From the NCBI GenBank assembly GCA_963771075.1, contig CAVYSE010000001.1, positions 32,001 through 96,000 on the forward strand: a stretch of 64,000 bases of DNA, read 5' to 3'. Below the pieces are notes generated by a model. That model was not told the origin of the DNA, did not search any database, and worked only from the letters and a program-made list of their open reading frames with translations. The position numbers and the translations under genes were made by a program. Position 1 is the first letter of the stretch, and each line of letters opens with the position of its first letter. Below are positions 6,285 through 35,063 of this stretch, one piece after another. This DNA comes from a candidate division FCPU426 bacterium. GTDB taxonomy: Bacteria > Oederibacteriota > Muellerivitia > Muellerivitales > Muellerivitaceae.

Positions 6285-7478
6285 ATGGTTCGAATTTATT
6301 TCGTATTAGTTTCCATCCTGCTTTTATTGGCCATCTTTGGGGCATTTTTCTACATCACCAAGATAAATAAACTCCCCCCGCCTGCCCCCGGGGTCTCCCA
6401 AAAGGTTCTCGCACCTCTAGCGTCACCCACCCCTGCCCGAAAGGAGAAAAGGGGCCCGAAAAAAGTGACCGAAAACCATGTGCGAATCCACACTCCAAAG
6501 GCGGTTTGGCACATCAAGAATAATTTAACCCCGACGCCAACCTCCGCCGTTGAAAGAGGCTCGGCGGATGCCAATAAAATCACTTTTGAACCGACTATGA
6601 TTCCATCTAAGAATATTCCCGAAGGTATGCCATGTCCCGCTCCGTTCATTTATCCATTGCCCCCGGGAGCTCAGGCTCTCCTACCGGAAAAAGCCCAGGT
6701 AATTAGTGACGGGTGGATAAACTTCCCGCGGAGGGAAAAAGAACTTTATGTTAGTTGTACGGTTATTGACCATATGAAGTATTGCTATTCAATCAATATC
6801 TTTTCCGCTCAAGGTGATCATTACGGTCTTGTTTTTCAAAAAGAGTTTTGCAGTATGGGTTTGGGTGAGCATTATTGCCAGCCCAATCCCAAAGACCCCA
6901 CGCTGCTTCTACTTGTTAATCAACTCCCTGTATCGCAGGAAAAAACTTTGGAAATTTATCGATGGGACAGTTCAGGGGTATCACAGATATTTACCGTCCC
7001 AAATTGGGGGGAACACCTGGCGGATCTCAACCATGATGGAGGCCGGCAAATCATTTGCATGAATCGATATGGTCCTGACAATATCCTAGCCTACCGGAAT
7101 GGGGAGATAGTCATCGCCAATTTTGATTACCCCGAAAATTACCATCAGGTAATACAGGAAATGGGTTTTGCCATTGACGATCCCGGCGTGCCGGACCATG
7201 AGAAGCTTTTTAAGGAAGAATACGGGGATTGGCTTCCGGCTTATTTATACGCAGGTCAGCTCCGCTACGGGCTCTATGTTGTCCAACAATTGCGGGAGAT
7301 CGCCAAAAGGTCCACCAATCCGGAAGACCAAAAGGCTCGAGGTAGGTTGGAGGAGAAATTCGAGCGGTTTGAATCGGAAGTAAAGATTCTCCAAGGGAGT
7401 GAAACAAAGAAAATAATGGAATTGAAAACCAAGATACCTTTGTTAGATAAGGCTTTGTCAAGGGACGAAGGGAATTGA
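6285..7478 (+). CDS. Membrane-anchored hypothetical protein with a DLNHDG (FG-GAP/EF-like) motif
   Basis: 397-aa ORF with an N-terminal TM helix, GGAG RBS and a TGATAAT -10-like site upstream. Confidence 0.7.
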   Translation: MVRIYFVLVSILLLLAIFGAFFYITKINKLPPPAPGVSQKVLAPLASPTPARKEKRGPKKVTENHVRIHTPKAVWHIKNNLTPTPTSAVERGSADANKITFEPTMIPSKNIPEGMPCPAPFIYPLPPGAQALLPEKAQVISDGWINFPRREKELYVSCTVIDHMKYCYSINIFSAQGDHYGLVFQKEFCSMGLGEHYCQPNPKDPTLLLLVNQLPVSQEKTLEIYRWDSSGVSQIFTVPNWGEHLADLNHDGGRQIICMNRYGPDNILAYRNGEIVIANFDYPENYHQVIQEMGFAIDDPGVPDHEKLFKEEYGDWLPAYLYAGQLRYGLYVVQQLREIAKRSTNPEDQKARGRLEEKFERFESEVKILQGSETKKIMELKTKIPLLDKALSRDEGN

Positions 7479-7561
7479 ACCGGGTGCGTTTAGAAAGTTT
7501 CCAAAATCCCGGTTGCGCGGCAGGTAAATTGAAACTGGTATAATCCTGGAATGGAAAAAAA

Positions 7562-8576
7562 GGGTCAGGCCAACACATAACACTTAAAAAACAATTCGGT
7601 ATTTGATAAGATTCTGCCATGCCCCGAGCAAAAAGAATCCATTACGAAGGCGCGGTTTATCACGTCACTTCCCGGGGGAATGAACGAAGAAAGATCGTGT
7701 TTGACGATTCAGACCGTGGTTTATTCCTAAAAATACTCGCCGAAGTCGTGGAAGAACATCACCTGCATTGTCATGCTTGGGTATTGATGGACAATCACTA
7801 TCATTTGTTGTTTGAAACCCCGGCCGCCAATCTTTCCACCGCCATGAAGCATTTAAATGGGCTTTATACCCAAAGGTTCAATCGAAAAAGACACCGAGTA
7901 GGACATTTGTTCCAAGGCCGGTTTAAGGCCATCCACGTCGACAAGGAAAGTTATTAGAAGGAATTGTGTAGGTATGCGGTCTTAAACCCGGTAAGGGCCA
8001 AAATGGCGAAGCATCCGAAAGAATGGAAATGGAGCCGTTATCGGCCTACGGCAGGTATTGAGAAGGCCCCGTCTTGGTTGGAAACGAAGTGGTTATTAGG
8101 ATTATTCGATAAAAGGTTAGATACGGCCCAAAAGGCCTATCGAGAGTTCGTGGACGATGGGCTCCAAGGGGGAACCAGCCCTTGGGATGAGTTGAGGCAT
8201 CAGGTTTATTTGGGGAAAGATGAATTTTTGGAAAAGATGAAGGGCCTGATATCGAAAAAAGAAAACATGGATATGCCGAAATACCAAAAGAAAATCATGC
8301 ATCCACCGGTGGAGAAGGTATTGGCGAAGGTGGCGGAAGTTTATGGCGTGAAGAAGGAAGCAATCATAAAAAGCCGAAAGAAGGGAAATGAAGTGAGGGA
8401 TGTAGCGATCTATTTGCTGAAGAAAACGGCTGGAATAAGCTCAAAAGAAACGGCGAAGGTGCTGGGGGTGAGTTCGTCGGCGATTGGGAACCGATGGGCG
8501 GTGATAAAAATGCGCATGGAGAAAGACCGGCAATTGGAGAAAATGATCCGTAAGTGTCAAGTGTTGGCCTGACCCC
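7562..8576 (+). mobile_element. Y1/RAYT-like transposase element with ~24-bp terminal inverted repeats
   Basis: Left GGGTCAGGCCAACACATAACACTT (7562-7585) and right AAGTGTCAAGTGTTGGCCTGACCCC (8552-8576) are near reverse complements. Confidence 0.8.
7619..8572 (+). pseudogene. REP-associated tyrosine (Y1 HUH) transposase with C-terminal DnaA_C-like HTH; in-frame TAG at 7955-7957
   Basis: YHVTSRGN, MDNHYHL (HUH), GHLFQGRF, RYAVLNPVRA (catalytic Tyr) and WKWS. The two ORFs share one frame. Confidence 0.88.
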
Positions 8577-8746
8577 ATTTTTTTTGTTTTTTTGCGAAAA
8601 CATCCAACCTCGAATACCATCGTCATTCTTTAGGATTAAATTCTCCCGGATGTTCTCCCAATGAAACCCCCGCCCGTTTTTTGAGTGCGGGCGCTACAAA
8701 ATGGTTCTTGCCACCCATTCAATGGATGGCGCCGATTTCTACTAAA

Positions 8747-8783
8747 GTTGCACACCATCCTTTTTGCGAGGGCCATGTGCAGG
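8747..8783. repeat. 37-bp CRISPR-type repeat, cas-distal copy
   Basis: Exact match to 12261-12297. Confidence 0.95.
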
Positions 8784-10502
8784 CTTAAATGGCGTCCCCA
8801 GGTTTTTGCCGACATGGTCGGGCAAGAACACATTACCCGCTCTTTGCAGAACGCCATGAAGGCCGAGCGCGTGGCCCATGCTTACATCTTTGCCGGACCC
8901 CGTGGCGTGGGTAAGACCACTACCGCCCGCATCTTTGCCAAAGCCCTCAACTGCCGCGACCTGAAGAACGGTGAACCCTGCAACGTTTGCGACCTTTGCC
9001 AGGATGTGAACCAAGGGTCTTCGATGGACGTGATCGAGATCGATGCTGCTTCTTTCAACGGTGTGGACGATATCCGCAGCCTGCAAGAAACCGTCGCAAC
9101 CGCCCCCTCCAAGGCTAAATATAAGGTCTATATCTTTGACGAAGCACACCGGATCACCAAACAAGCCTTTGACGCCTTCTTGAAGACCCTGGAAGAGCCG
9201 CCCGCGCATGTCATCTTCATTTTGGCTTCGACTGAAATCCACCAGTTCCCCGCCACCGTCCAGTCCCGCTGCCAACGCTTCGAGTTCCGCGCGATGGGCA
9301 TGGATACCCTGGTCAAGCAATTGCGACGCATTACCGACGCTGAAGAGATCAAGATCGACGACAAGGGCCTCTATCAGATCGCTCGGGCCGCCCGCGGTTC
9401 CATGCGCGACAGCCAAAGGACCTTGGACCAGGTCGTGGCCTTCTCAGGAAAAGAAGTCAAAGCCGAAGATATCGCTATTGCCCTCGGCACCATTGAAGAA
9501 GAGGTTTATCTCAAGCTGGTCGAAGCCGCGGTGAACCAAGACGCTCCCTCCGCTTTGACCGTGACCAAGGCCGTCATCGATGGCGGCAAGGACCTGGAAC
9601 ATTTCTACGCCGGTTTGCTCGAAACCTTCCGCCACTTAGCGGTGGCCAAGGCTTATCCCGCTTCCGCTGCTCAATTCATTTCCCTGTCCGGCGAAGAAGT
9701 CGAAAAACTCGTGAAGTTCTCTTCCCAAATGGACGAGACCCAGATCCTCTCCTCCTTGCGTCTTCTCATTGAGCAAGAATGGGCCCTGCGCCATTCGAAC
9801 AACCCGCAGATCGTTCTAGAAACCGTCGTTTTGGAATTGTCCCATTTAAAACAGCTCACTTCGGTGAATGCTTTGTTGAAGCAGACCGAAGGCGGCGCGG
9901 CGCCGGTCTTGAACAACCCTAAACCCGCCATAGTTGCGCCCCGGCCAGCCGCTCCCATTGCCGCTCCTGCCTCGACCCCGACCTATTCTGCACCCGCCGC
10001 GCCTAAGGCTGCGGTTGTCATGGAAGGTGAGCCCGTATTAGCTGTTGATGAAATAGAAGAACCGATCGAGGCTGAAAGCAGCCCGGAGATGGCCAAGCTG
10101 AAATCCCAATGGCAAGAATTGTTGGAAAAGGTCGGCGCCAAGAACGCCACGATCAAAGCTGTCTTGAACGACACTCATCCGAAAAGCATCAAAGACGGCG
10201 TCTTAACCTTGTCCTGTAAAGGTCCCTTTCACTTCGACAAGCTGTCCGTTGCCGAGAACAGGGCTATTGTTGAAGGCATCATTTAAGAATTGCTGGGGTT
10301 GAAGCTCACCATAGTGCCCTTGGCGCCGCAAACCACTAAACCCGCCGCCGGGGATAAACCCACCATGCGGTCCCCCAAGTCGATGTCCACCGCCAAGGTG
10401 GATGTGAAAGAGATCGAGAAGGACGAGCCCGTTGTGGCCGCCGCCATGAAACTTTTTGGCGCCAAGGTCGTCGAGGTCAAACGCAACAACCCTTCAAAGT
10501 AA
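8784..10502 (+). pseudogene. dnaX: DNA polymerase III gamma/tau, missing its first few codons, with an in-frame TAA at 10284-10286
   Basis: KWRPQ.F...VGQEH, GPRGVGKTT, zinc-binding Cys cluster, EIDAAS, DEAH, KTLEEPP and SRCQ. The frame continues after TAA to ...KLFGAKVVEV. Confidence 0.9.
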
Positions 10503-10511
10503 AAAGCCGTT

Positions 10512-12218
10512 TCAAGATCCATTTTGCGAGTGAATCGAAAAACCGCTGAAGGCTCCGCATTTAAAGACCAATCGCGCGTAGATCTTCTTGTGAAAATTCT
10601 CCAGAACATACTGGTAGTAACGCAACCCCTCCCCGGTCGAGCAAATCACCAATACCCGCGGATTGTCCACTGCGTCCCGAAGAGGTTCTTTCACTCCAAA
10701 ACTTTCCAAACCATTCAAACTGGCCGGACTGGTCTGTGAAAAAGAAGATATCCAAAGATGAAAGGGCCGCAGACACTCGAGGTCATCGAAAGCACCAAAG
10801 CCTTCCAATGGGAACTGCCAGATCACATAAAGCCGATCAGATCGAGGCTGAGCGTCAATGAGATAGTCATGAAGGGTTTGTTGAGCATCCTGCCGCTGTC
10901 GGGCTTGTTGGTAATAACCTTTTAAATTCGGGAAACAAAGGATCAAAGCCGCTGCCAATACCGCGCCTTTTCCCCAAGAGACCAGATCTCTCCCCGTTTT
11001 AAAAGACTCTCCTTCGACGAGAGCCCAGCTCAATGAAAAGGCCAGCACCGGTAAAGTGACCCGGTCCGGCGCCCGCAAAAGATAGATCAGTCCCACGAAC
11101 AGAAGGAGTGTCCACAAGAACTGAGCAAGAAGGAATTTTCTCGCGGACGAAGAACAAAAAAGACCCAATATCAGGAGCGCCAAGATCATCCGCAGGTCCC
11201 AATCAGATAGCACCAATTCTTCTAAGCTGTGGAACGAAGCGGTCTTCCCTTCGGAACTCCATCGGGGAAAAGAAGCCCCGATCTTGCGAAAAGCTTCTAA
11301 GTTGAACTTTGCCGGGTCGGTATAATACCAATTCTTAAAAAGCCAAAGGTCGTTCTCAGTCCACCCCGCCGCGTCAAAGACCGGTTTGGTTTGGGCCGTA
11401 TAAAAAGGAACATGGTAGTCCTGAAGTTCTACCCGAGCCTGGTCAAAGTCGCGGTATTGCCGCCAAGCGGGATCGTTCTGGAACCAAAAGAAATGGAACA
11501 GTCCTAAGACCAATAACCCCGCTCCTATCAGGATAGGGAAGCCTTTTTTCTTAGCAATGAACTCCCGCCACTGAGGGTCTGAGAGACAAGAGATCCAAAG
11601 AGGAAGCGCGAGCACGAATGCCAGTGCTAATGAATCCATTCGGATCAAAGCGGAGAGCCATAAGAGGACCGTCCCAGTGACGAGTGATCCATTCGAAGGT
11701 TTTTCTTGGCCATCCCGGCCGGACAACAGGAAAATAAAAAGTCCCGCTTCGGCGGCCAATAGGGCCGTGATGGTGAACTGAAGAAAAACAAAAAAGAGGA
11801 AATAAACGCAGACCCACGCGATGGTGAAAAGGAGAACTCGTCCCCACACCAAAGCCTTTCGCAGTGAAAGCCAAAGAACGGCCCACAAAGCGCCGAACTG
11901 GGTCAGGCAGAGGAACCAGCCGTACCAAGGAAAGGTCTGCCGCCAGCGATAAAGCTCCCGCAAAAAGTAGCCCAAAAGAACGTTGGAGTAACCGATAAAA
12001 GGTGAAGCCTGGCCCGAAGCATTGATGCCTTTGACCGCCAGGACCTTGAAAATGTCATCGTTGACCAGGAAGAATGGCTTGATAAAAAACAATTGGATGC
12101 TGAAGAGGATTAGCGTTATTGTGAACGACGCCAACGCGGGGTTGTCGCCGAAAACCCGCGAAGGTCGGTTCTCGGCCTTTGCGGCAAGAGGATGTTTGGG
12201 TTGAGAAAGACGGGGCAT
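10512..12218 (-). CDS. Multi-pass membrane protein of unknown function (possibly GT-C-like)
   Basis: About 10 TM segments and an NDD motif after TM1. ATG at 12218 follows a TGATAAAAT extended -10-like site. The frame stays open to 12323 through the repeat. Confidence 0.75.
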   Translation of the reverse strand: MPRLSQPKHPLAAKAENRPSRVFGDNPALASFTITLILFSIQLFFIKPFFLVNDDIFKVLAVKGINASGQASPFIGYSNVLLGYFLRELYRWRQTFPWYGWFLCLTQFGALWAVLWLSLRKALVWGRVLLFTIAWVCVYFLFFVFLQFTITALLAAEAGLFIFLLSGRDGQEKPSNGSLVTGTVLLWLSALIRMDSLALAFVLALPLWISCLSDPQWREFIAKKKGFPILIGAGLLVLGLFHFFWFQNDPAWRQYRDFDQARVELQDYHVPFYTAQTKPVFDAAGWTENDLWLFKNWYYTDPAKFNLEAFRKIGASFPRWSSEGKTASFHSLEELVLSDWDLRMILALLILGLFCSSSARKFLLAQFLWTLLLFVGLIYLLRAPDRVTLPVLAFSLSWALVEGESFKTGRDLVSWGKGAVLAAALILCFPNLKGYYQQARQRQDAQQTLHDYLIDAQPRSDRLYVIWQFPLEGFGAFDDLECLRPFHLWISSFSQTSPASLNGLESFGVKEPLRDAVDNPRVLVICSTGEGLRYYQYVLENFHKKIYARLVFKCGAFSGFSIHSQNGS

Positions 12219-12260
12219 ACCTGGGATTTTATCAAACCCCTCTTCCAGCCTTGCGGTTAT

Positions 12261-12297
12261 GTTGCACACCATCCTTTTTGCGAGGGCCATGTGCAGG
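12261..12297. repeat. 37-bp CRISPR-type repeat, cas2-proximal copy
   Basis: Exact match to 8747-8783. Confidence 0.95.
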
Positions 12298-12319
12298 AGC
12301 CTGTAATTATTGGATTTTT

Positions 12320-12655
12320 TCAATGTTCAGCCGAATTCGGCGTGATTTGGATAAGTTCAAATGCAGATTCAATGTCAACATCATCTTTCATAGAACTTAG
12401 CGTACCACTGAAAACCGAATCCTCAAAGCACGACCGGCAGAGCGTACTGACAAAAAACTTCTCGGTCTTCTTTGCGAATGTCCCCTTGAATTGTTTCTCG
12501 AGTTTATCCCGTTCTTTTGAATACAATTTCCCGATATACATATTCCGTAAAACCGGCTTGAGACCATAATTCTTGCACCACTGAACCGCCTTGTCCCGAT
12601 GCCGCCAGTTGCGCGTTTCCCACGATACTAGGGTAATGGCATTGAAATTGTTCAT
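12320..12655 (-). CDS. cas2: Divergent Cas2-like protein
   Basis: Overlaps the cas1 stop (ATGA). The LVSWE...R.K....CKNYGL..V....Y.G.L...E...L and LCxxC pattern follows the Cas2 layout. Confidence 0.75.
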   Translation of the reverse strand: MNNFNAITLVSWETRNWRHRDKAVQWCKNYGLKPVLRNMYIGKLYSKERDKLEKQFKGTFAKKTEKFFVSTLCRSCFEDSVFSGTLSSMKDDVDIESAFELIQITPNSAEH

Positions 12656-13662
12656 GATATCGAAAAAAGTTTTTCCGCTCGAAATGGATTGTACTTGCCT
12701 TCCTTTTCAACAAAGTGGCGAGCCAACGCCCTAATCTGGTTATCGATGATCTGCTTAAGAGTATATTGCTTGCCCCGCCATGCCGTCATTTCATTCAACC
12801 GCTTCATGATGGCACCTACCACGACGCTTTTTCCTTCAGGTGATAACAGATATTTACCAACCGCGATTTTTTCAAAATATTTCCGTTGGTTCAGTTTCTT
12901 TTCTATGAAAAGCGGGAAAAGCACCGAGTCGACGATTGGTACGCGGAATTCTTCGACAAGATCGAGCACGAGGGCAGGCTTACCATAGCGTTCACTGTGG
13001 TAGAGGCCGAGATATGGATCAAGACCGACGTAAAGACATGCCCGTTCGACTTCATTGTAAAGGATGCCGTAGCCGTAATTCAGTACGCTGTTAAACTGGT
13101 CTCTGCCTTGTGGTTTACGGCCCGGGAATCTATGGAATTTCTTTAGCCCGCTGAAATATTTGTCAGCGATGTATCCCTCGGTACCAAGGAGTTGCTCCTT
13201 GCCCTTCTCTGAACACGGAACATTGTCCAAGACATCAAAAAGTGTCTGTGCTTGTAAGAGCTCCGTCCCCACATCTTTTTTGTATCGATACGCGAGATAT
13301 CGGAGTAGATCGAGCTGATTAGCGCATTTGCCTCGCACTAATTCTTTCGCGATATTGAACGATCGCTCAAGCGAAGTTGATGCTTCCAGTTGGGCTTTAC
13401 GAAGACTCGCCAGGCCTTTTGGTTCGCTTGAAAATACTCTTCCGATGGGTTTGCCAAATGAACCGAGATAGACGATATCAACATCGTGCTCAATCGCGAG
13501 CTGAACCGCATGAGTCGTGAGCGAGGCCGGCCGAAGTATAACTATTTTCTCCAGTCTATGGATCGGGTATTCTTTTTTCTCTTTAACTTTCGGAAAAGAA
13601 AGGACGATGCGCTCCCCAATTGTGCCGATCTTGGTACCGTAAGTATCAATAAGCAAGTCCAT
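12652..13662 (-). CDS. cas1: CRISPR-associated integrase Cas1 (336 aa from MDLLID)
   Basis: LLGTEG (catalytic E), NSVLNYGYGILY, GLDPYLGLYH (catalytic H) and LVLDLVEEFR (catalytic acidic residues). Confidence 0.95.
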   Translation of the reverse strand: MDLLIDTYGTKIGTIGERIVLSFPKVKEKKEYPIHRLEKIVILRPASLTTHAVQLAIEHDVDIVYLGSFGKPIGRVFSSEPKGLASLRKAQLEASTSLERSFNIAKELVRGKCANQLDLLRYLAYRYKKDVGTELLQAQTLFDVLDNVPCSEKGKEQLLGTEGYIADKYFSGLKKFHRFPGRKPQGRDQFNSVLNYGYGILYNEVERACLYVGLDPYLGLYHSERYGKPALVLDLVEEFRVPIVDSVLFPLFIEKKLNQRKYFEKIAVGKYLLSPEGKSVVVGAIMKRLNEMTAWRGKQYTLKQIIDNQIRALARHFVEKEGKYNPFRAEKLFSIS

Positions 13663-13663
13663 G

Positions 13664-13675
13664 TGGCCTGTCCCC
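13664..13675 (+). repeat. Copy of the transposase end motif at the cas1 start
   Basis: TGGCCTGTCCCC versus TGGCCTGACCCC at 8565-8576 (11/12 identical). Confidence 0.45.
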
Positions 13676-13975
13676 CAAATTTCGTAAACCATCCTTGTAT
13701 AATTACGTACAATATTTAATAAACCAGCATCTGAAAATATAATTCCTCCAGATATTCTTGATTCGAAACAAAAGCAAAATGATTTGAGCGGAAAAAACAA
13801 ATTTGAAGAAAACCCTACCTTCTTGGCTGTTCCTGGCTGGTAGCTTTGCTTGAAAATGCCCCCAATCTGTTGTATTTTAGCTCCCCTTTCTTTACCTTTA
13901 GCGTGTGGGCCCAAATGTGGGCCTTTTTTTTACCCATGAATAGGAAAACCTGATTCCCGTGTGTGGAGTGAAGAG

Positions 13976-18888: not shown

Positions 18889-20334
18889 ATGGCGAAACCC
18901 ACAGGATTCATGGAAGCGGGACGGGAAACCCCGCACAAAAGGCCCGTAACCGAGCGGGTGAAGGATTGGAAAGAATACACCCTTCCCCCCGAACCCTCCC
19001 ACCTGAAGACCCAGGCCGCCCGCTGTATGGACTGCGGCATCCCCTTCTGCCACATGGGCTGCCCCCTGGGCAACATCATCCCCGACTGGAACGACATGGT
19101 CTACCGCGAGCGATGGAAGGAAGCCATCGAGCGCCTGCACGCCACCAACAATTTCCCCGAGTTCACCGGCCGGCTCTGCCCCGCCCCTTGCGAGAATTCC
19201 TGCACCCTGGCCATGGACGTCTACGACCAGCCGGTGACCATCAAGCAGATCGAGGTTTCCATCATCGACCATGCCTGGAACGAGGGCTGGGTTCGCCCCC
19301 TGCCCAGCGTCAAGAAGACCGGGAAAAAGGTCGCCGTGGTGGGGTCGGGCCCCGCGGGGCTGGCCGCCGCCCAGCAGTTGGCCCGGGTGGGCCATTCGGT
19401 GACGGTGTTCGAGCGCGCGGACCGCGTCGGCGGGCTTTTGCGCTATGGCATCCCCGAGTTCAAGATGGAAAAGCGCCACCTGGACCGCCGTTTGGAGCAA
19501 ATGCGGGCGGAAAGCGTGGAATTCAAGGTGAACGCCAACATCGGCCATAACGTGCCTGTGGAGGACTTAAAGAAGAATTTTGACGCCATTGTGTTGGCCG
19601 GGGGCGCCACCCAGCCCCGCAACCTGCCCGTACCGGGTAGGGAATTGAAGGGCGTTTATTTCGCCATGGAATACCTGACCCAGTCCAACAAGGTCCAGCA
19701 AGGCGACAAGGTCGAGGGCCAGATCATCGCGAAGGACAAGCACGTCATCGTCATCGGCGGCGGGGACACGGGAGCTGACTGTATCGGCACCGCCCATCGC
19801 CAGGGCGCCAAGAGCGTGACCTCCCTTGAGGTTTTGCCCAAGCCCCCTGTTTCCCGCGCGGCGAACAACCCCTGGCCCGAATGGGCCCGGATCTTCCGCG
19901 TGGCGGGAGCCCATGAGGAGGGCGGGGAAATCCTCTATAGCGTTTCCACCAAGCAATTCGAGGGCGAGAACGGCGTGGTCAAGAAATTGAAGGGCGTGAA
20001 GGTGGAATGGATACCGCAGCCTTCCGGCCCCCCCAAGATGCAGGAAGTGGCGGGAAGCGAGTTTGAGTTGCCCGCCGACCTGGTGTTTTTGGCCATGGGC
20101 TTTACCGGCCCGGAGAAGAACCCGCTGTTCGAAAAGATGGGCATCGAGTTGGACCCGCGCTCCAATGTGAAGGCCAACGCCAACAAGATGACCAATGTTC
20201 CCGGCATCTTCGTGGCGGGGGACATGACCCGGGGCCAGTCCCTGATCGTTTGGGCCATCGCCGAGGGCCGCGCCGCGGCCAGGGGAGTGGATCTTTATCT
20301 GATGGGTGAAACGACACTGCCCAGCCCTCTTTAA
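18889..20334 (+). CDS. gltD: Glutamate synthase small subunit
   Basis: MAKPTGF, CMDCGIPFCH.GCP, GSGPAG and GGGDTG. Confidence 0.96.
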   Translation: MAKPTGFMEAGRETPHKRPVTERVKDWKEYTLPPEPSHLKTQAARCMDCGIPFCHMGCPLGNIIPDWNDMVYRERWKEAIERLHATNNFPEFTGRLCPAPCENSCTLAMDVYDQPVTIKQIEVSIIDHAWNEGWVRPLPSVKKTGKKVAVVGSGPAGLAAAQQLARVGHSVTVFERADRVGGLLRYGIPEFKMEKRHLDRRLEQMRAESVEFKVNANIGHNVPVEDLKKNFDAIVLAGGATQPRNLPVPGRELKGVYFAMEYLTQSNKVQQGDKVEGQIIAKDKHVIVIGGGDTGADCIGTAHRQGAKSVTSLEVLPKPPVSRAANNPWPEWARIFRVAGAHEEGGEILYSVSTKQFEGENGVVKKLKGVKVEWIPQPSGPPKMQEVAGSEFELPADLVFLAMGFTGPEKNPLFEKMGIELDPRSNVKANANKMTNVPGIFVAGDMTRGQSLIVWAIAEGRAAARGVDLYLMGETTLPSPL

Positions 20335-20981
20335 ATAATTAGATTTAGAGGGAAGGCTGGACATACCCAGTTCTCATATAAATTCACAAATTGAAACTGG
20401 GTGCCCAGCCCTCTTTAATAAATAGATTTAGAGGGAAGGCTGGACATACCCAGTTCTCATATAAATTCACAAATTGAAACTGGGTGCCCAGTCCTCTTTA
20501 ATAAATTGATTTAGAGAGAAGGCTGGACATACACAGTTCTCATATAAATTTTAAGGGTCGTTCCCGAATTTGCAGATAAAGGGTTTTGAAGTGCTTTTTG
20601 TGGTCTGTCATCGAGAGGAGGCGCCCCAATCGGGGCGGTTGCCGACGTCGCGATCTCAGTTCGATGTTCGTCTTGGCCTTTTTAAAGGCTTTTTTAAACT
20701 GGGATTGTCCATGGGCTAAAGCCCATGGAGGGTTGGCCGAATTTAGGCCAACTACCACAAGCCTCTCGTGAACGTCCGCCTAGCCCCATTTTTCTTTAAG
20801 GGTAAATAAGGAAAATGGGATGATCCCGCATCATCTTTTAAAATTTTCAAAAGGAAATGCGGGATATCGGCGGCCACTCGTCGCAATGACAACCAAATAA
20901 AGCAAGATTTAAAACGGACTCTATCTGCAAATTCAGGAAAGGGGCAATTTTAAAATTGAAACCGGGTGCCCAGCCCTCTTT
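20318..20981 (+). repeat. 83-84-bp tandem repeat starting in the gltD 3' end; third unit interrupted by a MITE
   Basis: Units start at 20318, 20402 and 20485; the third resumes at ~20954. Confidence 0.85.
20555..20945. mobile_element. MITE-like element with 18-bp subterminal IRs and 8-bp TSD AATTTTAA
   Basis: TTCCCGAATTTGCAGATA (20561-20578) pairs with TATCTGCAAATTCAGGAA (20922-20939). AATTTTAA at 20547-20554 and 20946-20953. Confidence 0.7.
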
Positions 20982-22454: not shown

Positions 22455-22770
22455 GTAGTGTCTCAGTTTGAAGTCATTCCGAGCTTTGACCCGATAGGCT
22501 CGATTTGCGACGTGGGAATCCCAGGTTTTGCCGTAGGTTCAAGGTGTACAACCTGAGATTGTCCTGGGGCTAAAGCCCCAGGATGGTTGGCCGAATTCAG
22601 GCCAACTACTACATGCCTGGTTCATGCCGCTTTACAAAAAAAGACAAAGGGTTAGCGGCATAGTCCTGATTTACGTTGCCCAATGGGCAACGTAGGACAA
22701 ACCGCCCCGATTGGGGCTGACCCTCGCAATGACGACTTAAATTAGTTGCCCTTTTAAACTGAGACACTAC
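22455..22770 (+). mobile_element. MITE copy A (TIR GTAGTGTCTCAGTTT)
   Basis: Terminal IRs. Flanks CTATTTAGCG and CTATTCAGCG form a near-perfect 10-bp TSD. Near-identical inverted copy at 26260. Confidence 0.85.
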
Positions 22771-22814
22771 CTATTCAGCGCATCTTTTGTAATTAGTCCA
22801 TTCCTTTTTATACA

Positions 22815-25217
22815 ATGTCCTGCCTGAACCAAACTTTACAAAGGGATTCAATGACCGTCCGAAGTTTTTACGCTGGCCTGGTGGTGTTTTTCTTTTCCTC
22901 CTTGACCTTTGCCCAAAATCTCCCAATGACTCCCGTGACCGTTGACGAGTGCGCGACGACCATCCGCATCGACGGCCACCTGGATGATTGGCCCCTTGCC
23001 CGGATGTTCCACCTGAACCAGAAATCCCAGGTCACCTCGGGGCTCTCCTTCTGGAAGGACGAGGACGATTTCAGCGGAAGGGTCTTCATCACCTACAACA
23101 CCCAGTACCTCTACTTCTCCGCCGTGGTCACCAAGGCCAATCCCGTCGTCAACGACGGATCACGGCTGTCCCTGTTGAACGGGGATTGCGTGGAACTGCT
23201 GATTTCAACCCACCATTCCGCCAAGCGCCGGACCCGCCTGTCGCGGGGAGATTATCATTTCGGCTTTTCCCCTGGAACCGATTGCAAGTTCCCTTCGCTC
23301 TACTGTTTCAACCTGGACGAGGAAGTAACGGGGGCGCGGATTGTGTCGCGAAAAACTTCCAAGGGCTATGTGGTGGAAGCGGAGATTCCCCTATCGTTCC
23401 TGAAAGGCATCGACCTGGGGCCGGGGAAGGGGGCCTACCTGGACGTGGCCCTGGACGAAGGAGGCTCCCTGAGCGGCAACCGGATCCTGCGGATGGACAT
23501 GGCCCAAGATGACTTTTCGCCCAGCCATCCGGGCGGCTGGCCCGAAGTGGAGTGGATCGGGAAGGATGAGGTTTCCATTCCCCTGGTAGATCCGGGCGAC
23601 CTTAATTCGGACCTGGTGAAGGATGGCACCGCGGGTGAAACTTTCCGGGGTTCCCATCCCGTGACCGGGGTCGTCCAGGACTTAAACGGCAAACCCCTGG
23701 CGGGGGCGTTCGTCACCACCTGGCCCCGCACCCATGAATGCCAGGCCGACAAGTCCGGCCGGTTCCTTTTTGACCGCATCAAGCTTTATGACCGCACCCT
23801 GTTCTATGCCCGTTTGGACGGCTACCTGACCAGCCTGGCGCCCTACGTGAAGAACATTCCGGTCACCCTCCGGTTGAAACCCATTCCGCCGGAACTGATG
23901 CCCGAAACGGGCAGGGTGGGCGGGTTCTTTTTTGGGCTCAACCTGCCCGTCTCCCAAGGGGGAAACAACCCTCCGCCCCTTGCCGGTGACGAGCCAAGCT
24001 TGAAAACCATGGGCCTGAGCTTTCTCGATTTTTCCGGCCTGGACCCCCGGACCCAAACCCCGGAGGAAATGTCCGAGAGATTGGATCTTTTCGTCGACTA
24101 TTGCGGCCAGGTGGGCTGCGCGCCTCTGGTTCGCTTGGCCCTGCCTTTTTTCAGCGCCGAGCAGGCCGCCGCATTGGTGGAGCACGAGAGTGAAACCCAT
24201 CCGGGCCGAGTGGAATATTGGGCCCTGGGAAATGAGCCTGATCTCTTGGAGGGGATCAACGATGACCCCGACCAACAGCCCTTCAACGTCTATCGGTACA
24301 TCAATGAGTTCCGGGAAATCTACAACGCGATGAAACGGGTGGACCCCGGCCTGGTCATCATGGGGCCGGGACTGGCGTTCAAATATGGACACGCCGGGGA
24401 GGATTGGTTGACTCCCTTCCTTCGTTATGACGGCGACATCGTCAACCTGGCTTCCATCCACCGCTACGCGATGAAGGCCCCCCCGGTGGATGGCAAGGCG
24501 GTCCTGAAAACCCTCCGCGAGGAGCCGGCTCTCATCCGGGGCCTGGAGGACCGGGTCGACGTGAATACGGACGTGACCGTGCCCCTGGTCGTCACCGAGG
24601 CCGGCCTGTTCGCGGGTCCCGGATTACCCGCGGCGACCCCGGTTCCCGCCATGACCCCATCCGCGACCCCTTCCTCCGGTCCGGCGACGCTTAAAACGCC
24701 GACCCCCACCCCCTCCACCCAATACGATAGGGTCTGGCCCGCCCTTTGGGCGGGGGAAGAAGCGGGGCTTTTAATCACGGGGGGAATACCCATGGCGCAT
24801 TTTTCGCCTCTCGTCTATTCGCCGGGTCCGGTTTCGGCCTTTTCCAATATCTCCAGTCCAATCGACTGGGCCTTGCGCGTGATGGCGCCCCAACTGAAGG
24901 GAAAGGTGCTATCGGCCCAAACCCGCATGCCGAACCTTTTTGTCTTCGCCACCGAGGATGAAGCAACCCGCACGGTCCAATTGATCCTGGTGAACGCCGG
25001 TGACCGTTACCTTCACCCGCGCATCAATGTGAGGGGGGGCGACGCGGATGTGAGCCTGCTCTCCGATCTTTACATGGACGCCGATCTGGAAGTGCCGGAG
25101 ATGGGCCTGGCCCGCCTGACCTTGCGGGATCAGGGCCGCCCCTGCGAATCCGAGGTCTACTTTTACCGTGATGTCCTGGACGGGAAGCCGCCCAGGGTGA
25201 AAAAGGAATCATTCTAA
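22815..25217 (+). CDS. Secreted modular protein: CBM9/DOMON-like domain, carboxypeptidase-regulatory-like domain and clan GH-A glycoside hydrolase
   Basis: IDGHLDDW and GYVVEAEIP; WALGNEPD acid/base, SIHRY and VTE nucleophile. The start may be 22851. Confidence 0.75.
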   Translation: MSCLNQTLQRDSMTVRSFYAGLVVFFFSSLTFAQNLPMTPVTVDECATTIRIDGHLDDWPLARMFHLNQKSQVTSGLSFWKDEDDFSGRVFITYNTQYLYFSAVVTKANPVVNDGSRLSLLNGDCVELLISTHHSAKRRTRLSRGDYHFGFSPGTDCKFPSLYCFNLDEEVTGARIVSRKTSKGYVVEAEIPLSFLKGIDLGPGKGAYLDVALDEGGSLSGNRILRMDMAQDDFSPSHPGGWPEVEWIGKDEVSIPLVDPGDLNSDLVKDGTAGETFRGSHPVTGVVQDLNGKPLAGAFVTTWPRTHECQADKSGRFLFDRIKLYDRTLFYARLDGYLTSLAPYVKNIPVTLRLKPIPPELMPETGRVGGFFFGLNLPVSQGGNNPPPLAGDEPSLKTMGLSFLDFSGLDPRTQTPEEMSERLDLFVDYCGQVGCAPLVRLALPFFSAEQAAALVEHESETHPGRVEYWALGNEPDLLEGINDDPDQQPFNVYRYINEFREIYNAMKRVDPGLVIMGPGLAFKYGHAGEDWLTPFLRYDGDIVNLASIHRYAMKAPPVDGKAVLKTLREEPALIRGLEDRVDVNTDVTVPLVVTEAGLFAGPGLPAATPVPAMTPSATPSSGPATLKTPTPTPSTQYDRVWPALWAGEEAGLLITGGIPMAHFSPLVYSPGPVSAFSNISSPIDWALRVMAPQLKGKVLSAQTRMPNLFVFATEDEATRTVQLILVNAGDRYLHPRINVRGGDADVSLLSDLYMDADLEVPEMGLARLTLRDQGRPCESEVYFYRDVLDGKPPRVKKESF

Positions 25218-25307
25218 GGGAAATGGATCTCCGGGCCCTTGGAAAGGGTTGGGAGAATCCCCAGGTGGGGTTAAAATGGTTCCATTCTTTTCCCTTGAGG
25301 GTATTCG

Positions 25308-26048
25308 ATGAAAAATATTTTCTTTCTTATCCCCTTTTTTTTGATCTCCCTTTGGCTGCCCGTCGCCTGCCAGAAGACCTATACCCTTCCCACAGTTCCG
25401 CCCACGCCAGGCCCCACCGCCACCCCCACCTGTAACACGCCCGCCCAAACCCAGCCCTGTTCCGGGACGGGCATTCAATGGGGTTACGGGCAGGTGGTGG
25501 TTCAAGCCAGCCAAGGCGGAACAACGACTTGGTACGCAGAATTGGAAATTGATGTTGATTGCGCGCTTTGCACTAACGCCCAGGTCACCCTGACGAGCCC
25601 GGAGTTGGCCCTGCCCGTACCTGTGCCTTACGCCAACGGTCATGTCCTCATGAACGGGACCCAATATTCCGATTATGGGACCAATAATTTTCCGGGGACC
25701 CTGGCGGCCGGCTCCTACACCCTCACCGCCGTCACGCCCTCCGGGACCACCTCAGCTACCTTGACCCTGCCGCCCCAGCCGGTCATCTCCGCCGACGGTT
25801 CCACCGCCTCCTGGCCCGGTTCAGCCCAATGGGCGCTCGTCGCGGTCGACAACTCCTCCTATTCCCGAACCTTCATTTCCAGCGACTGCTGGTCTGCCAG
25901 CTCGCCCTACTCCATTCCCGCTTCGGCCTATCCATCCTCCGGTACCTATTACGCGGCCGCGGGTTGTGAAAATTGGACGACGGCCATTAACGGGGGTTCC
26001 GGCATTTTCAGCATATCCAACTCATACGAAACGGGCGTAACGAAATAG
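25308..26048 (+). CDS. Lipoprotein, hypothetical
   Basis: Lipobox-like LPVAC, GAGG RBS and Thr/Pro linker. Confidence 0.75.
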   Translation: MKNIFFLIPFFLISLWLPVACQKTYTLPTVPPTPGPTATPTCNTPAQTQPCSGTGIQWGYGQVVVQASQGGTTTWYAELEIDVDCALCTNAQVTLTSPELALPVPVPYANGHVLMNGTQYSDYGTNNFPGTLAAGSYTLTAVTPSGTTSATLTLPPQPVISADGSTASWPGSAQWALVAVDNSSYSRTFISSDCWSASSPYSIPASAYPSSGTYYAAAGCENWTTAINGGSGIFSISNSYETGVTK

Positions 26049-26058
26049 AGGAGTGTCT

Positions 26059-26232
26059 ATGAATTTTGGGCATCTGGATCCAAACCTGGTTTTGCTATTG
26101 ATCATCATTTTCTGGGTTATCTGCGGACGCTTCCTGATGAAATTAGCGATCGAGATCGTCCTGCTTTGGGCCTTGGCCCTGTTCGTTTTCTGGTACGCCG
26201 CGCCTTTCCTTGCCAAGTTTTTCCATCATTGA
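26059..26232 (+). CDS. 57-aa small membrane protein (absent from the ORF track)
   Basis: GAGGAG RBS; MNFGHLDPNLVLLLIIIFWVICG... with two hydrophobic segments. Confidence 0.6.
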   Translation: MNFGHLDPNLVLLLIIIFWVICGRFLMKLAIEIVLLWALALFVFWYAAPFLAKFFHH

Positions 26233-26259
26233 TCCCCTAACCCCAAACGAAACACCCGG

Positions 26260-26577
26260 GTAGTGTCTCAGTTTAAAAGGGCTATTGATTTAATTCGTCA
26301 TTGCGAGGGTCAGCCCCAATCGGGGCGGTTTGTCCTACGATGCGCATTGGGCAACGTAAATCAGGACTATGCCGCTAACCCTTTGTCTTTTTTTTGTAAA
26401 GCGGCATGAACCAGGCATGTAGTAGTTGGCCTGAATTCGGCCAACCATCCTGGGGCTTTAGCCCCAGGACAATCTCGGGTTGTACAACTTGAACCTACGG
26501 CAAAACCTGGGATTCCCACGTCGCAAATCGAGCCTATCGGCTCAGCTCCTCGGAATGACTTCAAACTGAGACACTAA
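26260..26577 (-). mobile_element. MITE copy B, inverted relative to copy A
   Basis: TAGTGTCTCAGTTT / AAACTGAGACACTA ends, with AAACACCCG duplicated on both flanks. Confidence 0.85.
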
Positions 26578-30255: not shown

Positions 30256-33200
30256 TGGGGAGAATGGATTTTAACATTTCAACGTTTTTAATTACCAAAA
30301 CCCTCAGAAATGCGCGACTGGGAGTACTGCTCCTGGGCCTGCTACCTCTCGCCCAGCCCCTTTTCGCCCAATGTACACCTACCTCGGCCTCCCTTTGCGC
30401 TAGCGGCGATGATTTAACCACCGTCTATGTGGGGGGATCCCTCCTTGGCACTTTCAACTATGCCGGCGCGCCGGGTACCAATTGAGCCGCCAATCCCACC
30501 TGCATGACCGTTTCGACGGCCCTATTGACCGGGGCGCAAGTCTGCCTTTCCGTGGAGACCCAGAACACCGCCCCGGAGGACAATTTCAGTTCCTGGGACC
30601 TGGACATTACCTGCCAAGGCGGCAACCATTCGGAGATCACCAGCTCAGGAACGGGCATCTCGGTGGACTACGTCTCCGGCGGCAACCCCTCCGCGACTCC
30701 CATTCCCGACGGCAGCGGAAATCCCTGGTACGGCACGGGTTTCAATGGGGGCACCACCTTCCCGACCACCTTTTGCTCCAGCGGAGTGACGGCCTCCACC
30801 TGGGCCAACCCCATCTACAACCCGGTCACGGGAAAGGTCATCCCCTTCATCTCCAACAACTGCTCGGGCGATTACAGCACCAGCAATTCCACCGGCGCCC
30901 TTTTTTGGCACCAATGCACCACCCTACCCCTTCCTTCGCCCACGATCGGACCGCCCAATTTCACCATTACCAAGTCCCTGGAAAGCGCCGTCACCAATAC
31001 GTCCAACAACACGGTGACGGTTAATTTCAGCGTGGTGGTCTGCAACACCGGCGGGCCTGTCACGAACGGCCCCACCACTGTCTCGGACAATTTCCTGACC
31101 AACGTGAACCAGGGAACCTGTAACGCGTTCAACAGCTTTAATTGCTGGGGATACGGGGACGCCATGGTGCCCTTTACCGAGTGTTACTACAGCCCTCCCA
31201 ACGGCCTGGCGAACGAGCCGACCGTCACCAATAACCAGCTGATCTTCCCGAATTTCGGGACCGGATGCGTCACGGCGACGGCGGTGGCCATTAATTATTA
31301 CGACAATATCGCGGGCTGCGGCCTGACCCTGGTGGACCAGGCCTCGGTGACCTGGCCCAACGGGAGCAAAAGCTCCGGGGACGTAACCTATATCCAAACC
31401 ATTCCCGCCGCCACCACGCCCACCTTCACCCACACGCCCACCCGTACCCCGACGGTGACCCCCACCCGTACGCCTACCTTCACGCCCACCGTCACCCCCA
31501 CCCGCACCAACACCCCCACCGTGACCCCGACCAATACCAACACCGTGACTCCCACCGTCACTCCAACCAACACGCCTACCAGGACCAACACGGTCACCCC
31601 CACCAACACCAACACCGTCACACCGACGGCGACCCCCACGAATACCTTTACCCCCACGGTCACGCCCACCCGCACCAACACCCCGACCAATACGCCCACC
31701 CGCACGAATACCAACACCCCCACCGTCACCCCCACCGCCACGGCCACTCCGACCGTTACGGTCACCAACACCTCCACGAATACCTTCGTGGTGACGCCCA
31801 CCCACACCCTGACCCCAACGCCGACCGTGACCCCCACTGTGACGCCGACGAACACCCCCACGGCCACCCCGACCCGTACCAAAACTAATACGGTGACAGC
31901 CACCAGCACTCCCACCCTTACCAATACCGCCACCAATACCCGTACCCTGACCAGCACACCTACCGTTACGAACACACCCTCGGTCACCATGACCACGACA
32001 CCGACCAATACCCTATTGATGACCCCCACCCAAACGAATACCAATACGGTGACCAATACCAACACCCAAACCAACACCCGAACCCAAACCAATACTCCAA
32101 CCCTGACCAACACCCGAACCCAGACCAATACCCCAACGCTCACCCTGACCGCCACCAACACCTTGCTCGTGACCAATACCCCCACCCAGACCCTGACCTA
32201 TACATCCACCAACAGCCCCACGGTGACGATGACTCCGACCACCACCAATAGCCCCACCGTCTCTTCCACTCAAACACCTACCAAGACGATCACCAACACC
32301 GAGACGGTCACCAACACCCTCACCCTCACCCTGACAAAAACGCAAACCGACAGCCCCACCGTGACCAGTACGTTTACCACTACGAATAGCCCAACCTTCT
32401 CCTACACCCCAACCCCCACGAAGACGGTCACCAACACCGAGACGGTCACCAGCACCCCCACCTTGACCCTGACGAAAACGCAGACCGACAGCCCGACGGT
32501 GACCATGACCCTTACCACAACAAATAGCCCGACGGTTTCATCCACTCAAACGCTCACCAAGACGATCACTAACACCGAGACGGTGACCATCACTCCCACC
32601 CTGACATTAACGAAAACGCAGACCAATAGCCCAACGGTGACCATGACCCTGACCACCACCAATACCCGGACGGTGACCAGCACCCCCACCGATACCTTTA
32701 CCATCACGAATACCTATACGCCCACGAACACCAAGACCATCACCAACACCGATACCCCGACGAATACCAAGACAATCACCAGCACTCCCACCGATACCTT
32801 TACCATCACGAATACCTATACGCCCACGAACACCAAGACCATCACAAACACCGATACCCCGACTAATACCAAGACAATCACCAGCACTCCCACCGATACC
32901 TTTACCATCACGAATACCTATACGCCCACCAACACCAAGACCATTACCAACACCGATACCCCGACGGATACCAAGACCATCACCAGCACTCCCACCGATA
33001 CCTTTACCATCACGAATACCTATACGCCCACGAACACCAAGACCATCACCAACACCGATACCCCGACGAATACCAAGACAATCACCAGCACTCCCACCGA
33101 TACCTTTACCATCACGAATACCTATACGCCCACCAACACCAAGACCATTACCAACACCGATACCCCGACGGATACCAAGACCATCACCAGCACTCCCACC

Positions 33201-35063
33201 GATACCTTTACCATCACGAATACCTATACGCCCACCAACACCAAGACCATCACCAACACCGATACCCCGACGAATACCAAGACCATCACCAGCACCCCCA
33301 CCGATACCTTCACCATCACGAATACCTATACGCCCACGAACACCAAGACCATCACCAACACCGATACCCCGACGAATACCAAAACCATCACCAGCACCCC
33401 CACGGATACCTTTACCATCACGAATACCTATACGCCCACCAACACCAAGACCATCACCAACACCGATACCCCGACGAATACCAAGACCATCACCAGCACC
33501 CCCACCGATACCTTTACTATCACGAATACCTATACGCCCACCCACACCAAAACCATCACCGATACCTTTACCTCCACCCACACTCCAACGGTGACCCGCA
33601 CGCCTACCGATAGTTTCACCCCGACGCAAACCCATACCCCCACTCATAGCCCGACCGTGACGAACACACGAACCTCCACCTTGACGCCCACCTCCACCCA
33701 CACACCGACCGTGACCCCCACGGCGTCTTCGACATCGACCGTGACCTTTACACCCACCGTTACCCTGGTGGGGGCCGCCATGATCACCAAGCAGGTTTCC
33801 ACTTCGGTCACTGGCGCCGGCTCTGATCTGTTCTATACCCTTACCCTGAACGTGACGGGGAGCGGGGTCCAGAACCTGGTGGTGACCGACCCCCTACCGT
33901 CCAACCTTACCTTCAAATCCTTCGGGTCCGTCCCGGCTGGGACCGTCACCCTCTTCAACGCCGCCTCGGCCCTCCTTACCTGGCAGCTGCCCTCGCCCCT
34001 CGCACCCGGTTCTTATCCGCTCGTATTCCAGGCGACGGTCAACAACCTAGTGGCGGGAGGTGTTACGATCCATAACTGCGCGGTGATGAACGTCACGGGC
34101 CAGGGGCCCATGACCGCCTGCGCGGATACCCTGACGACGGGCGAATATACGGTGAAGATCGGGGTCTACAATGAGGCGGGTGAGCTGATCGAGTCCCTGC
34201 CCGTGAGTCAGTATTCCCAATCCATCAACAGCTTCAGCCTGAGCTCGGGGGCAATCACGGCGGTGAGCGGGCCCGGGAGCTCGACGACGGTCCTCTTCTC
34301 GGGAAGCCCCATCGGTTCCTGGAACGGAACGGACTCGTCGGGGACCCCGGTGGTAAACGGCCAGTATTACCTGAAGATCGACAGCATCAGCGGCATGGGC
34401 GCGGACACCAGCGTTACCGAGCCGGTCGTGGTGAATCGGTCGGTCTATAAGGTGGCGGTGAAGATCTACAACGAGGCCGGGGAGGTGGTGAGGAACCTTT
34501 ACGTCTATACGAGTAATCCGGGCCCGAACACGGCCACCCAACTTCAATTATCAACCACGAATTTCGCGCCTACCAGCGGCCCGGTCACCGGTGCCATCCC
34601 AACCCAATTGACGATCACGCTCAACAATGGCACGGCCATCGTGTGGGACGGCACGGGGGACAACGGGACGGTGGTTACTTCCGGCCAATATTACATCGAG
34701 GTATCCGCACAGGACGGGCAGGGCGGGGAAACGCTGTTGACGGCGCATGTGATGGTGCTTTCGGACACGGCCAACGCCGGGATGGGCAATATCACGGCGA
34801 GGCCGAACCTGCTGAACCCGGGCACGGGTTATACCGTCACCTTCATCTCGGACTCGACGCAGAGCCTGACCCTGGCCTGCCGGGTTTATGACATGGCGGG
34901 CGAGCTGGTAAAGCGGAACGCGACGGGTCCGGCGGGGACCAACGGAGCTTCCTGGGACGCGTCGGGGGTTGCCAGCGGGATCTATTTTGCCGTCGTGGAA
35001 GCTTACAACGCCCAGGGCGGCTTGATCGGCCACCAAAACCTCAAGATCGCGGTGGTGCGGTAG
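30256..35063 (+). CDS. Very large Thr/Pro-rich surface protein with DUF11-like and FlgD-Ig-like domains; in-frame TGA at 30483-30485
   Basis: The signal-peptide ORF (30207-30485) is in frame with the 1519-aa ORF. Motifs [20 protein letters not shown] and WDGT. Confidence 0.8.
32205..32660 (+). repeat. 138-bp (46-aa) coding tandem repeat, about 3 copies
   Basis: AAGACG anchors at 32283, 32421 and 32559. Confidence 0.8.
32670..33575 (+). repeat. 102-bp (34-aa) coding tandem repeat, about 9 copies
   Basis: Unit [42 protein letters not shown] anchors at 32676, 32778 ... 33492. Confidence 0.92.

Follow-up and report, generated by a model that had tools for sequence, protein, structure and literature searches.

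In integrons, and in clusters of attC sites lacking integron integrases (CALIN), foreign genes are arranged in tandem on the same strand with a short site between genes, and whole cassettes bounded by attC are moved by the tyrosine recombinase IntI. Dispersed repeats of the repetitive extragenic palindrome (REP) or miniature inverted-repeat transposable element (MITE) kind are associated with RAYT. In clustered regularly interspaced short palindromic repeat (CRISPR) systems, fixed spacer length is held to be a structural property of Cas1-Cas2, with ~33 bp between the active sites in Escherichia coli, and Cas1 is described as splaying DNA ends and handling 3' overhangs (10.1101/602623). The casposase tetramer excludes Cas2, and a casposase-to-Cas1-Cas2 transition was proposed (PMC6977970). 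Here we describe a cas1-cas2 module in a stretch of 64,000 nucleotides (the window) of contig CAVYSE010000001.1 of a candidate division FCPU426 bacterium (assembly GCA_963771075.1), where two CRISPR-type repeats enclose a gene-sized insert. Sequence comparison makes it probable that the module encodes a stand-alone CRISPR integrase without length control, which captures linear DNA ends. Below, G000 is the source (host) genome, G001 and following numbers are genomes of its family, and C denotes a contig.

The two repeats (Table 1) are identical over exactly 37 bp, with identity extending to neither side; 3477 bp lie between them, and the nearer one stands 22 bp from the cas2 stop (12320), so that the layout given in an earlier, model-generated note was confirmed by the coordinates. 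Background matches to the 37-mer in the host genome need 13 mismatches, which places the pair far beyond chance. The same note called the repeat palindromic, which proved an overstatement, as the palindrome is a 7-bp stem only and folding is no stronger than that of shuffled sequences (z -0.73). Homology between modules ends, in eight related loci, within the short segment upstream of cas1, in which a promoter scan gave nothing above shuffles.

Table 1. Features of the array and the cas1-cas2 module, in window coordinates
Feature	Position	Strand	Basis or remark
Distal 37-bp CRISPR-type repeat	8747..8783	-	Identical to proximal copy; length and termini as in repeats of sister V-F-like arrays
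Insert, 3477 bp, one contiguous piece of foreign chromosome	8784..12260	.	Collinear with the G015 locus
dnaX copy without its first 7 codons, in-frame stop at 10284-10286	8784..10502	+	NCBIfam/Pfam
Intact gene for a hydrophobic (membrane-type) protein of 568 aa, plus 42 bp of upstream DNA	10512..12218	-	No Pfam/NCBIfam match
Leader-proximal 37-bp repeat, presumed integration site	12261..12297	-	2-39 bp after cas2 across the clade
22-bp leader, cas2 stop to repeat	12298..12319	-	Kept in relatives and, elsewhere in the genome, in five units with a cas2 remnant
Divergent cas2, 111 aa	12320..12655	-	hhalign and fold matches to Cas2
cas1, 336 aa, intact	12652..13662	-	PF01867, TIGR00287
Short segment upstream of cas1, common to other module copies (34-52 bp)	13663..13714	-	

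Casposons are alike in that a Cas1 fold joins a pair of separate DNA ends to a specific site and duplicates the target (PMC6977970), but the marks of a casposon (terminal inverted repeats, PolB, no Cas2) are not found at the window locus: Cas2 is present, there are no terminal inverted repeats, the genes beside cas1 are cas2 and a gltB-like gene with no polymerase gene, the duplication is 37 bp and the cargo is arbitrary. Integrons and CALIN share the same-strand arrays of foreign genes parted by a short site; here, however, the inserts are cut mid-gene, the donor DNA has no site, and neither attC nor an integrase gene was seen around the module (no recombinase-like open reading frame, ORF, in the ORF list around it; the family scan covered ORFs from 6285 to 13662, and no genome-wide IntI search was made). 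The ~30 dispersed, weakly palindromic copies of the 37-mer, and a RAYT-like gene 165 bp beyond the distal repeat, recall REP/MITE families, from which this system differs by its strict same-strand clusters, locus-specific variants, fixed place after cas2 and foreign DNA between copies. The RAYT-like gene (7555-8582) combines an IS200-like domain with a DnaA-type helix-turn-helix, is bounded by inverted ends of 32 bp and has a stop codon in frame; copies ~90% identical are found on C5, C14 and C21, and more distant families across the genome.

The captured dnaX, which the earlier note saw to begin abruptly at the repeat edge, follows the repeat with no base between them; the start of the convergent gene, for a membrane protein of 568 aa, is at 12218. 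The insert is collinear with G015:C24:172361-175714, from a genome of the same family and another genus (72% nucleotide identity over 3413 columns), and is alignable to that locus up to its last base. In G015 the gene order, with names read from translations, is tadA, dnaX, membrane gene, ybaB-like and recR-like, and the insert takes up dnaX after its first 7 codons and runs on for 42 bp beyond the start of the membrane gene. The captured DnaX shares 83% of its amino acids with that of G015 and 62% with the host's own, whose gene is intact on C11 without the membrane gene beside it; the membrane protein is 58% identical to the product of the gene after dnaX in G015, and only 28-35% to host paralogues. 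Judged by this synteny, the insert is a piece of chromosome from a related genus. We also considered a native dnaX locus with repeats added on both sides, and rejected it, since on neither side does the locus carry on, and the native copy of the host is on C11. The in-frame stop of the captured dnaX sits where five homologues have Glu, and may stem from mutation or from sequencing error. Gene capture, proposed in the earlier note, is not borne out as a selected function by this truncated and broken gene.

A second dnaX is a classic sign of contamination, and this assembly is of metagenome type (3.2% contamination), so it could be thought that contigs of co-occurring organisms were joined via a common repeat, or that reads were chimeric. 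Such a misjoin needs the repeat in the donor, and the repeat pattern is absent from G015 and its native locus; moreover, five family genomes and 11 other loci show the same arrangement. Each of the 4 runs compared (3 studies; contigs only), one of which may be the source, contains the insert DNA at 99-100%, and contigs aligned to the locus cover 19-26 of 30 bins; among the contigs listed, none bridges a junction with 31 bases on each side. One contig of sample X2 runs from an insertion sequence (IS)-like end through the last 10 repeat bases into dnaX, and in another loose end the matching inverted IS-like end follows a 6-bp duplication. The G000 assembly lacks this variant, which we read as the left junction of a strain whose repeat carries an IS. 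A patchwork near the end of C8 (below) speaks for chimeras. On balance an assembly artefact is scarcely credible: the donor synteny and the left junction in another sample's contig make the misassembly foreseen by the earlier note unlikely, even if a bridge of that length was not among its supports. The IS-like element, with short inverted ends, occurs in the repeat (12293) and in cas2 (12540) in samples X2 and X1, and its end was not found in G000; a further X2 contig has two repeats 16 letters apart.

The pair in the window, taken in the earlier note for a single-spacer array, is not alone. G000 contains 29 full copies of the 37-mer (0-5 mismatches) on 10 contigs and one more cut by a contig end, against only one clade cas1. 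Clusters are found on C3 (7 repeats; gaps of 94-899 bp), C8 (6; 498-14,100 bp) and C27 (4), all without a full cas pair. Among 57 pairs of neighbouring repeats in five family genomes, all are on the same strand and 45 are identical; in G000 the identical neighbours are 10 of 15, versus a fraction of 0.21 for random pairs. Same-strand and often identical neighbours are what local duplication predicts. Five copies follow a cas2 remnant and leader, and three of these units begin just after a 30-bp palindromic site, which is found 102 bp before cas1 in six related loci and is absent from the window copy. Non-autonomous units at C3:1584-1791, C13:1-207 and C12:18944-19193 consist of this site, a short piece, the 3' remnant of cas2, leader and repeat, and could seed arrays served in trans.

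In the family, whose genomes are kin rather than independent samples and several of them incomplete, the repeat pattern was found in 9 of 31 genomes. The five with clade cas1 have 10-29 matches each; G002 has 13, with only a contig edge matching the 5' end of cas1 (its PF01867 match was tried as clade Cas1 and rejected as a different Cas1); three have 2-3 matches and no cas1, and 22 have neither. Outside the family, 39 of 158 fetched loci were examined (at least 42% Cas1 identity, downstream DNA present): 30 have a repeat-like motif after cas2, 11 of them two or more, and this position is kept down to ~57% Cas1 identity. The 37-mer is dispersed in the genome, but it is not unlinked to cas1, which would have refuted the earlier note: it stands after cas2 across the clade, resembles sister repeats, and in the family is distributed much as the clade cas1 is.

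We counted as a gap any distance between neighbouring repeats, in regions fetched around repeat clusters rather than at all clusters. The 57 distinct gaps of the five family genomes range from 30 to 14,100 bp (median 1792 bp); 37 exceed 1 kb, two are of 50 bp or less (30 and 38 bp), and none is common to different genomes at 90% identity. The wider clade gave 29 gaps, from 11 loci, of 140-7672 bp. Homologous loci, which the earlier note proposed to survey, are thus not confined to short spacers. Regular spacing with one short spacer length, the hallmark of canonical CRISPR arrays, was not seen, whereas loci of distant Cas1 have ordinary spacers of 30-44 bp. Among the cargo (88 ORFs scanned of 102 listed, in 3 genomes) we found transposases, restriction-modification-type genes, a nitric-oxide reductase, a metal transporter and many uncharacterized genes. 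The longest gap, G000 C8:13533-27632 (14.1 kb between identical repeats), holds a methylase, two ResIII helicases, SRAP, an S1/P1 nuclease and a truncated UvrD gene.

These lengths could also have arisen from ordinary short spacers, later inflated by IS elements and cassettes landing inside, as transposase or integrase families in ~11 of the 88 ORFs, the two shortest family gaps and the IS-like end that interrupts a repeat in one sample would suggest. We regard this as highly improbable. It already fails for the window insert, where housekeeping DNA of chromosomal origin fills the whole space and leaves no place for a remaining spacer; moreover, none of the 29 wider-clade gaps is below 140 bp, and a 559-bp spacer of the C3 array is the interior of an IS without IS ends.

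Three other places in the genome have the IS (PF13701) whose interior this 559-bp spacer matches at 100% identity, and both junctions of the spacer are blunt, with no base added, lost or shared. Five of the six C3 spacers have no match in the 31 family genomes or in the phage collection. G004 and G038 contain the 559-bp piece too, at 100% identity (in G000, C8:56007-57708), which makes a self-derived origin uncertain and another cell a possible source. As an observation in its own right, full identity across three genera points to exchange among these bacteria in the very recent past. At the C8:90519 repeat, host-matching stretches of 274 bp (100%, mid-gene) and ~1970 bp (98.7%) start exactly at its two edges. 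No homologous recombination or microhomology was seen at the four junctions with an exact source, and no shared motif of the protospacer-adjacent kind was seen in the source flanks read, which are those of these four junctions. Insert ends are unrelated to each other, with no att-like or inverted-repeat sequence, and are often mid-gene. In G038, a 1081-bp gap consists of cas1 from residue 94 (5'-truncated), cas2 and leader, the borders of several gaps fall at differing points within multi-copy IS DNA, and a variant repeat pair is nested within an array of another repeat variant; nested and self-captured pieces are expected if array pieces are themselves captured.

A common feature of the ends was sought in the family by reading inward from the repeats (103 ends of 53 gaps of at least 90 bp; 4 short gaps and 3 leader ends dropped). 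The AT fraction at positions 1-6 is 0.675 versus 0.549 (0 of 5000 resamplings), and this is seen at both ends; G at position 3 occurs in 4 of 103. In 77 independent ends, positions 2-7 have an AT fraction of 0.643 versus 0.554 (p ~0.0003), at proximal and distal ends separately, with a weaker depletion of G at position 3. Two canonical control arrays showed no AT-rich end block, one of them (L048) with 2 usable spacers only. Symmetric AT-rich, frayable ends are consistent with an enzyme which, like Cas1, splays each of them; a bias in how DNA breaks is an alternative source of such ends.

Another enzyme (a serine recombinase, a transposase or an end-joining pathway) might instead use the 37-mer as its target or crossover site, with cas1-cas2 as passenger. 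Arrays without adjoining cas genes, repeat-free blunt joins on C8 and the placing of the module, in relatives, 102 bp after a 30-bp cassette site are in favour of this reading, and we still consider it quite unlikely, given that the entire 37-mer is duplicated, that the ends have no common recombination sequence, that the place of the repeat after cas2 is conserved, and that the Cas1 triad is invariant. This triad is formed by E162, H222 and E237 (invariant in 41 homologues), the catalytic metal-binding residues. Cas1 scores over the cut-offs of PF01867 and TIGR00287 and under those of all subtype models; the best folds for its predicted model are Cas1 proteins and a casposase (6opm, among the top matches), at 26-28% identity. 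The 111-aa ORF has no Pfam, NCBIfam or PDB-sequence match, but a profile of eight homologues aligned with a TIGR01573 Cas2 (hhalign 93.7%) and Cas2 structures are the best PDB folds for its predicted model, whose C-terminal third is of low confidence. The N-terminal motif is YDI in sister Cas2s and WET/WRT in this clade (WET in the window). By its predicted model the ORF has the Cas2 fold, and it lacks the usual acidic motif. An intact Cas1 triad, an adjoining cas2 and a CRISPR-type direct repeat duplicated at each insert, the marks of a CRISPR adaptation module, are all present. The earlier note's proposal that this integrase inserted an oversized fragment is supported, with Cas1-Cas2 as the inferred agent.

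In a Cas1 tree (FastTree, 49 sequences; L113 left out for a frameshift), the window Cas1 nests among mostly Patescibacteria-labelled records (clade support 0.984), with mostly archaeal modules as sister group. These sister loci have repeats of 37 bp with the same termini as the clade repeat, at periods of 71-78 bp; cas4 is present in 7 of 7 (versus 0 of 34 clade loci, many on short contigs, and none in G000), a Cas12f-like match in 3 of 7 (versus 0 of 34, and none in G000), and in L035 the order is cas1-cas2-cas4-Cas12f-like. Type V-F (Cas12f/Cas14-associated) modules are alike in their cas1-cas2 order, their 37-bp repeat with the same termini and their sister Cas1. The window clade differs from them by having neither cas4 nor effector (no Cas12f and Cas4 at the locus), by its 22-bp leader directly after cas2, by the change of the Cas2 motif from YDI to WET/WRT, and by spacers of 30-14,100 bp versus ~34-41 bp. 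As part of the same best explanation, it seems likely that the module descends from Cas4-containing type V-F-like adaptation genes, and lost Cas4, effector and spacer-length control. Four genera have module DNA that is 93-98% identical, against 72-76% identity between their dnaX genes and that of the insert, which suggests recent transfer of the module among genera. No clade Cas1 was confirmed in viral contigs, and on plasmids the best-ranked matches listed are 31-34% identical, all 157 being below 60%. Single matches to an 18-nt repeat pattern were noticed in three viral contigs (L217, L218 and L219).

Integration may have proceeded as we propose while the arrays confer immunity, their repeat-processed transcripts being used by an effector encoded elsewhere. 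The V-F-like repeat termini are kept, many gaps have mobile-element or restriction-type genes, and TnpB-type or I-E proteins could act in trans. Indeed, the cas1-cas2 pair, an orphan at its own place as the earlier note had it, is not so genome-wide: a separate type I-E-like locus lies at C3:181900-196000, with an array of 61-bp period and interrupting IS genes (the type read from its gene order and ORF translations, cas1 being the one gene scored). However, that locus has its own repeats, Cas12f, Cas4, Cas6 and Csm queries had no match in G000 or in the 34 clade loci, the C3 array of clade repeats has no match in the phage collection, and inserts matching the host genome persist. Immunity is therefore unlikely in our opinion.

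For the stand-alone integrase, we propose that a linear double-stranded fragment is held by its two frayed, AT-rich ends, one in each Cas1 active site, with the intervening DNA looping out instead of lying along Cas2. A repeat would then be attacked at both its borders by the 3' ends, and duplication of the 37-mer would result from gap filling; the 3477-bp insert would be one such event. The lost length control may be due to the absence of Cas4 and to the change in Cas2. Substrates would be whatever linear DNA is present, namely neighbours' chromosomes, IS elements and the module itself, which would make the arrays a sequence-independent DNA store. Captured repeat-bearing pieces, and carriage of the module in arrays of 30-bp-site cassettes, could spread repeats round the genome. 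The truncated genes in the cargo point to unselective capture with occasional benefit, rather than to cassette exchange or immunity.

Several observations weigh against this reading. The exact donor of the insert was not found in 31 family genomes or in 3 genomes of the genus of G015 (best 72-78% nucleotide identity). Several arrays (C3, C8) have no adjoining cas genes or leader, and four family genomes have repeats with no clade cas1 detected. Some long gaps hold whole IS elements, 30-bp-site cassettes or the cas module, which inflates the upper length range. The first test window for the end signature (positions 1-6) was picked after viewing the data, and a GC-rich band at positions 7-12 was not replicated in the 77 independent ends. 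The 559-bp IS piece may come from another cell rather than being self-derived. Finally, at C8:91382-95653, near the contig end, two host-derived pieces are bluntly joined with no repeat, so that another joining process or chimeric reads must exist. The surrounding C8:90556-95707 is a patchwork of host pieces (C16, C7, C11; 99.7-100%) with blunt joins, the last two having no repeat between them, and is either a compound insert or made of chimeric reads.

A broader statement has, in our estimation, slightly the better of an even chance: that this is a two-protein, site-specific integrase for any linear double-stranded DNA, from tens of bases to >10 kb, needing only frayable ends, and a gene-capture platform apart from CRISPR immunity, casposons and integrons. 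As parts of that one statement, it would move between phyla, ride a second cassette system, copy its own repeats into new arrays and record neighbours' DNA, and whole operons (restriction-type, nitric-oxide reductase) would sometimes arrive intact. We found no description of such kilobase Cas1-Cas2 arrays in the open literature, subscription papers not being covered, which agrees with the earlier note, whose author knew of no such system; as far as searched, the clade is undescribed. New here are the donor synteny of a whole insert, the exact-source junctions, the nested and self-captured array pieces, the empty site and the end signature, and the system would be categorically new if an integration assay succeeds. 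A direct test is feasible with two small genes and a 59-bp target. If our reading is true, a natural clade without length limit shows how the ruler can be removed, mirroring in reverse the transition proposed for casposases (PMC6977970), and a route of horizontal transfer exists that needs neither homology nor donor-side sites. It could also be made into a compact tool with which kilobase DNA is recorded or inserted site-specifically. Kilobase-spaced arrays are invisible to spacing-based CRISPR finders, and captured marker genes such as dnaX would mimic contamination in assemblies.

The window module lies at the gltB end of a 20.3-kb block (G000 C1:25519 to ~45815; in the window, from its start to ~13815) that is absent between the same genes in G003, and in G001 cas1 is at the same genomic place, on a contig that ends in the repeat. 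The block contains a nitric-oxide-reductase-like gene, a chloride-channel-like gene, toxin-antitoxin-like pairs, RAYT and the cas module. In G038 two repeats enclose a comparable reductase cluster, so that the left-hand 15 kb may be old array cargo; a degenerate third repeat was sought in the 15 kb left of the array and none was found. Elsewhere in the window, an 83-bp tandem repeat follows the glutamate synthase genes (20331-20579), inverted arms (~290 bp, 96-98%) surround an 800-aa gene at 22456-26576, with related copies at 20696-20764, and a long Thr/Pro-type coding repeat with a period of 102 bp occupies 31380-33700.

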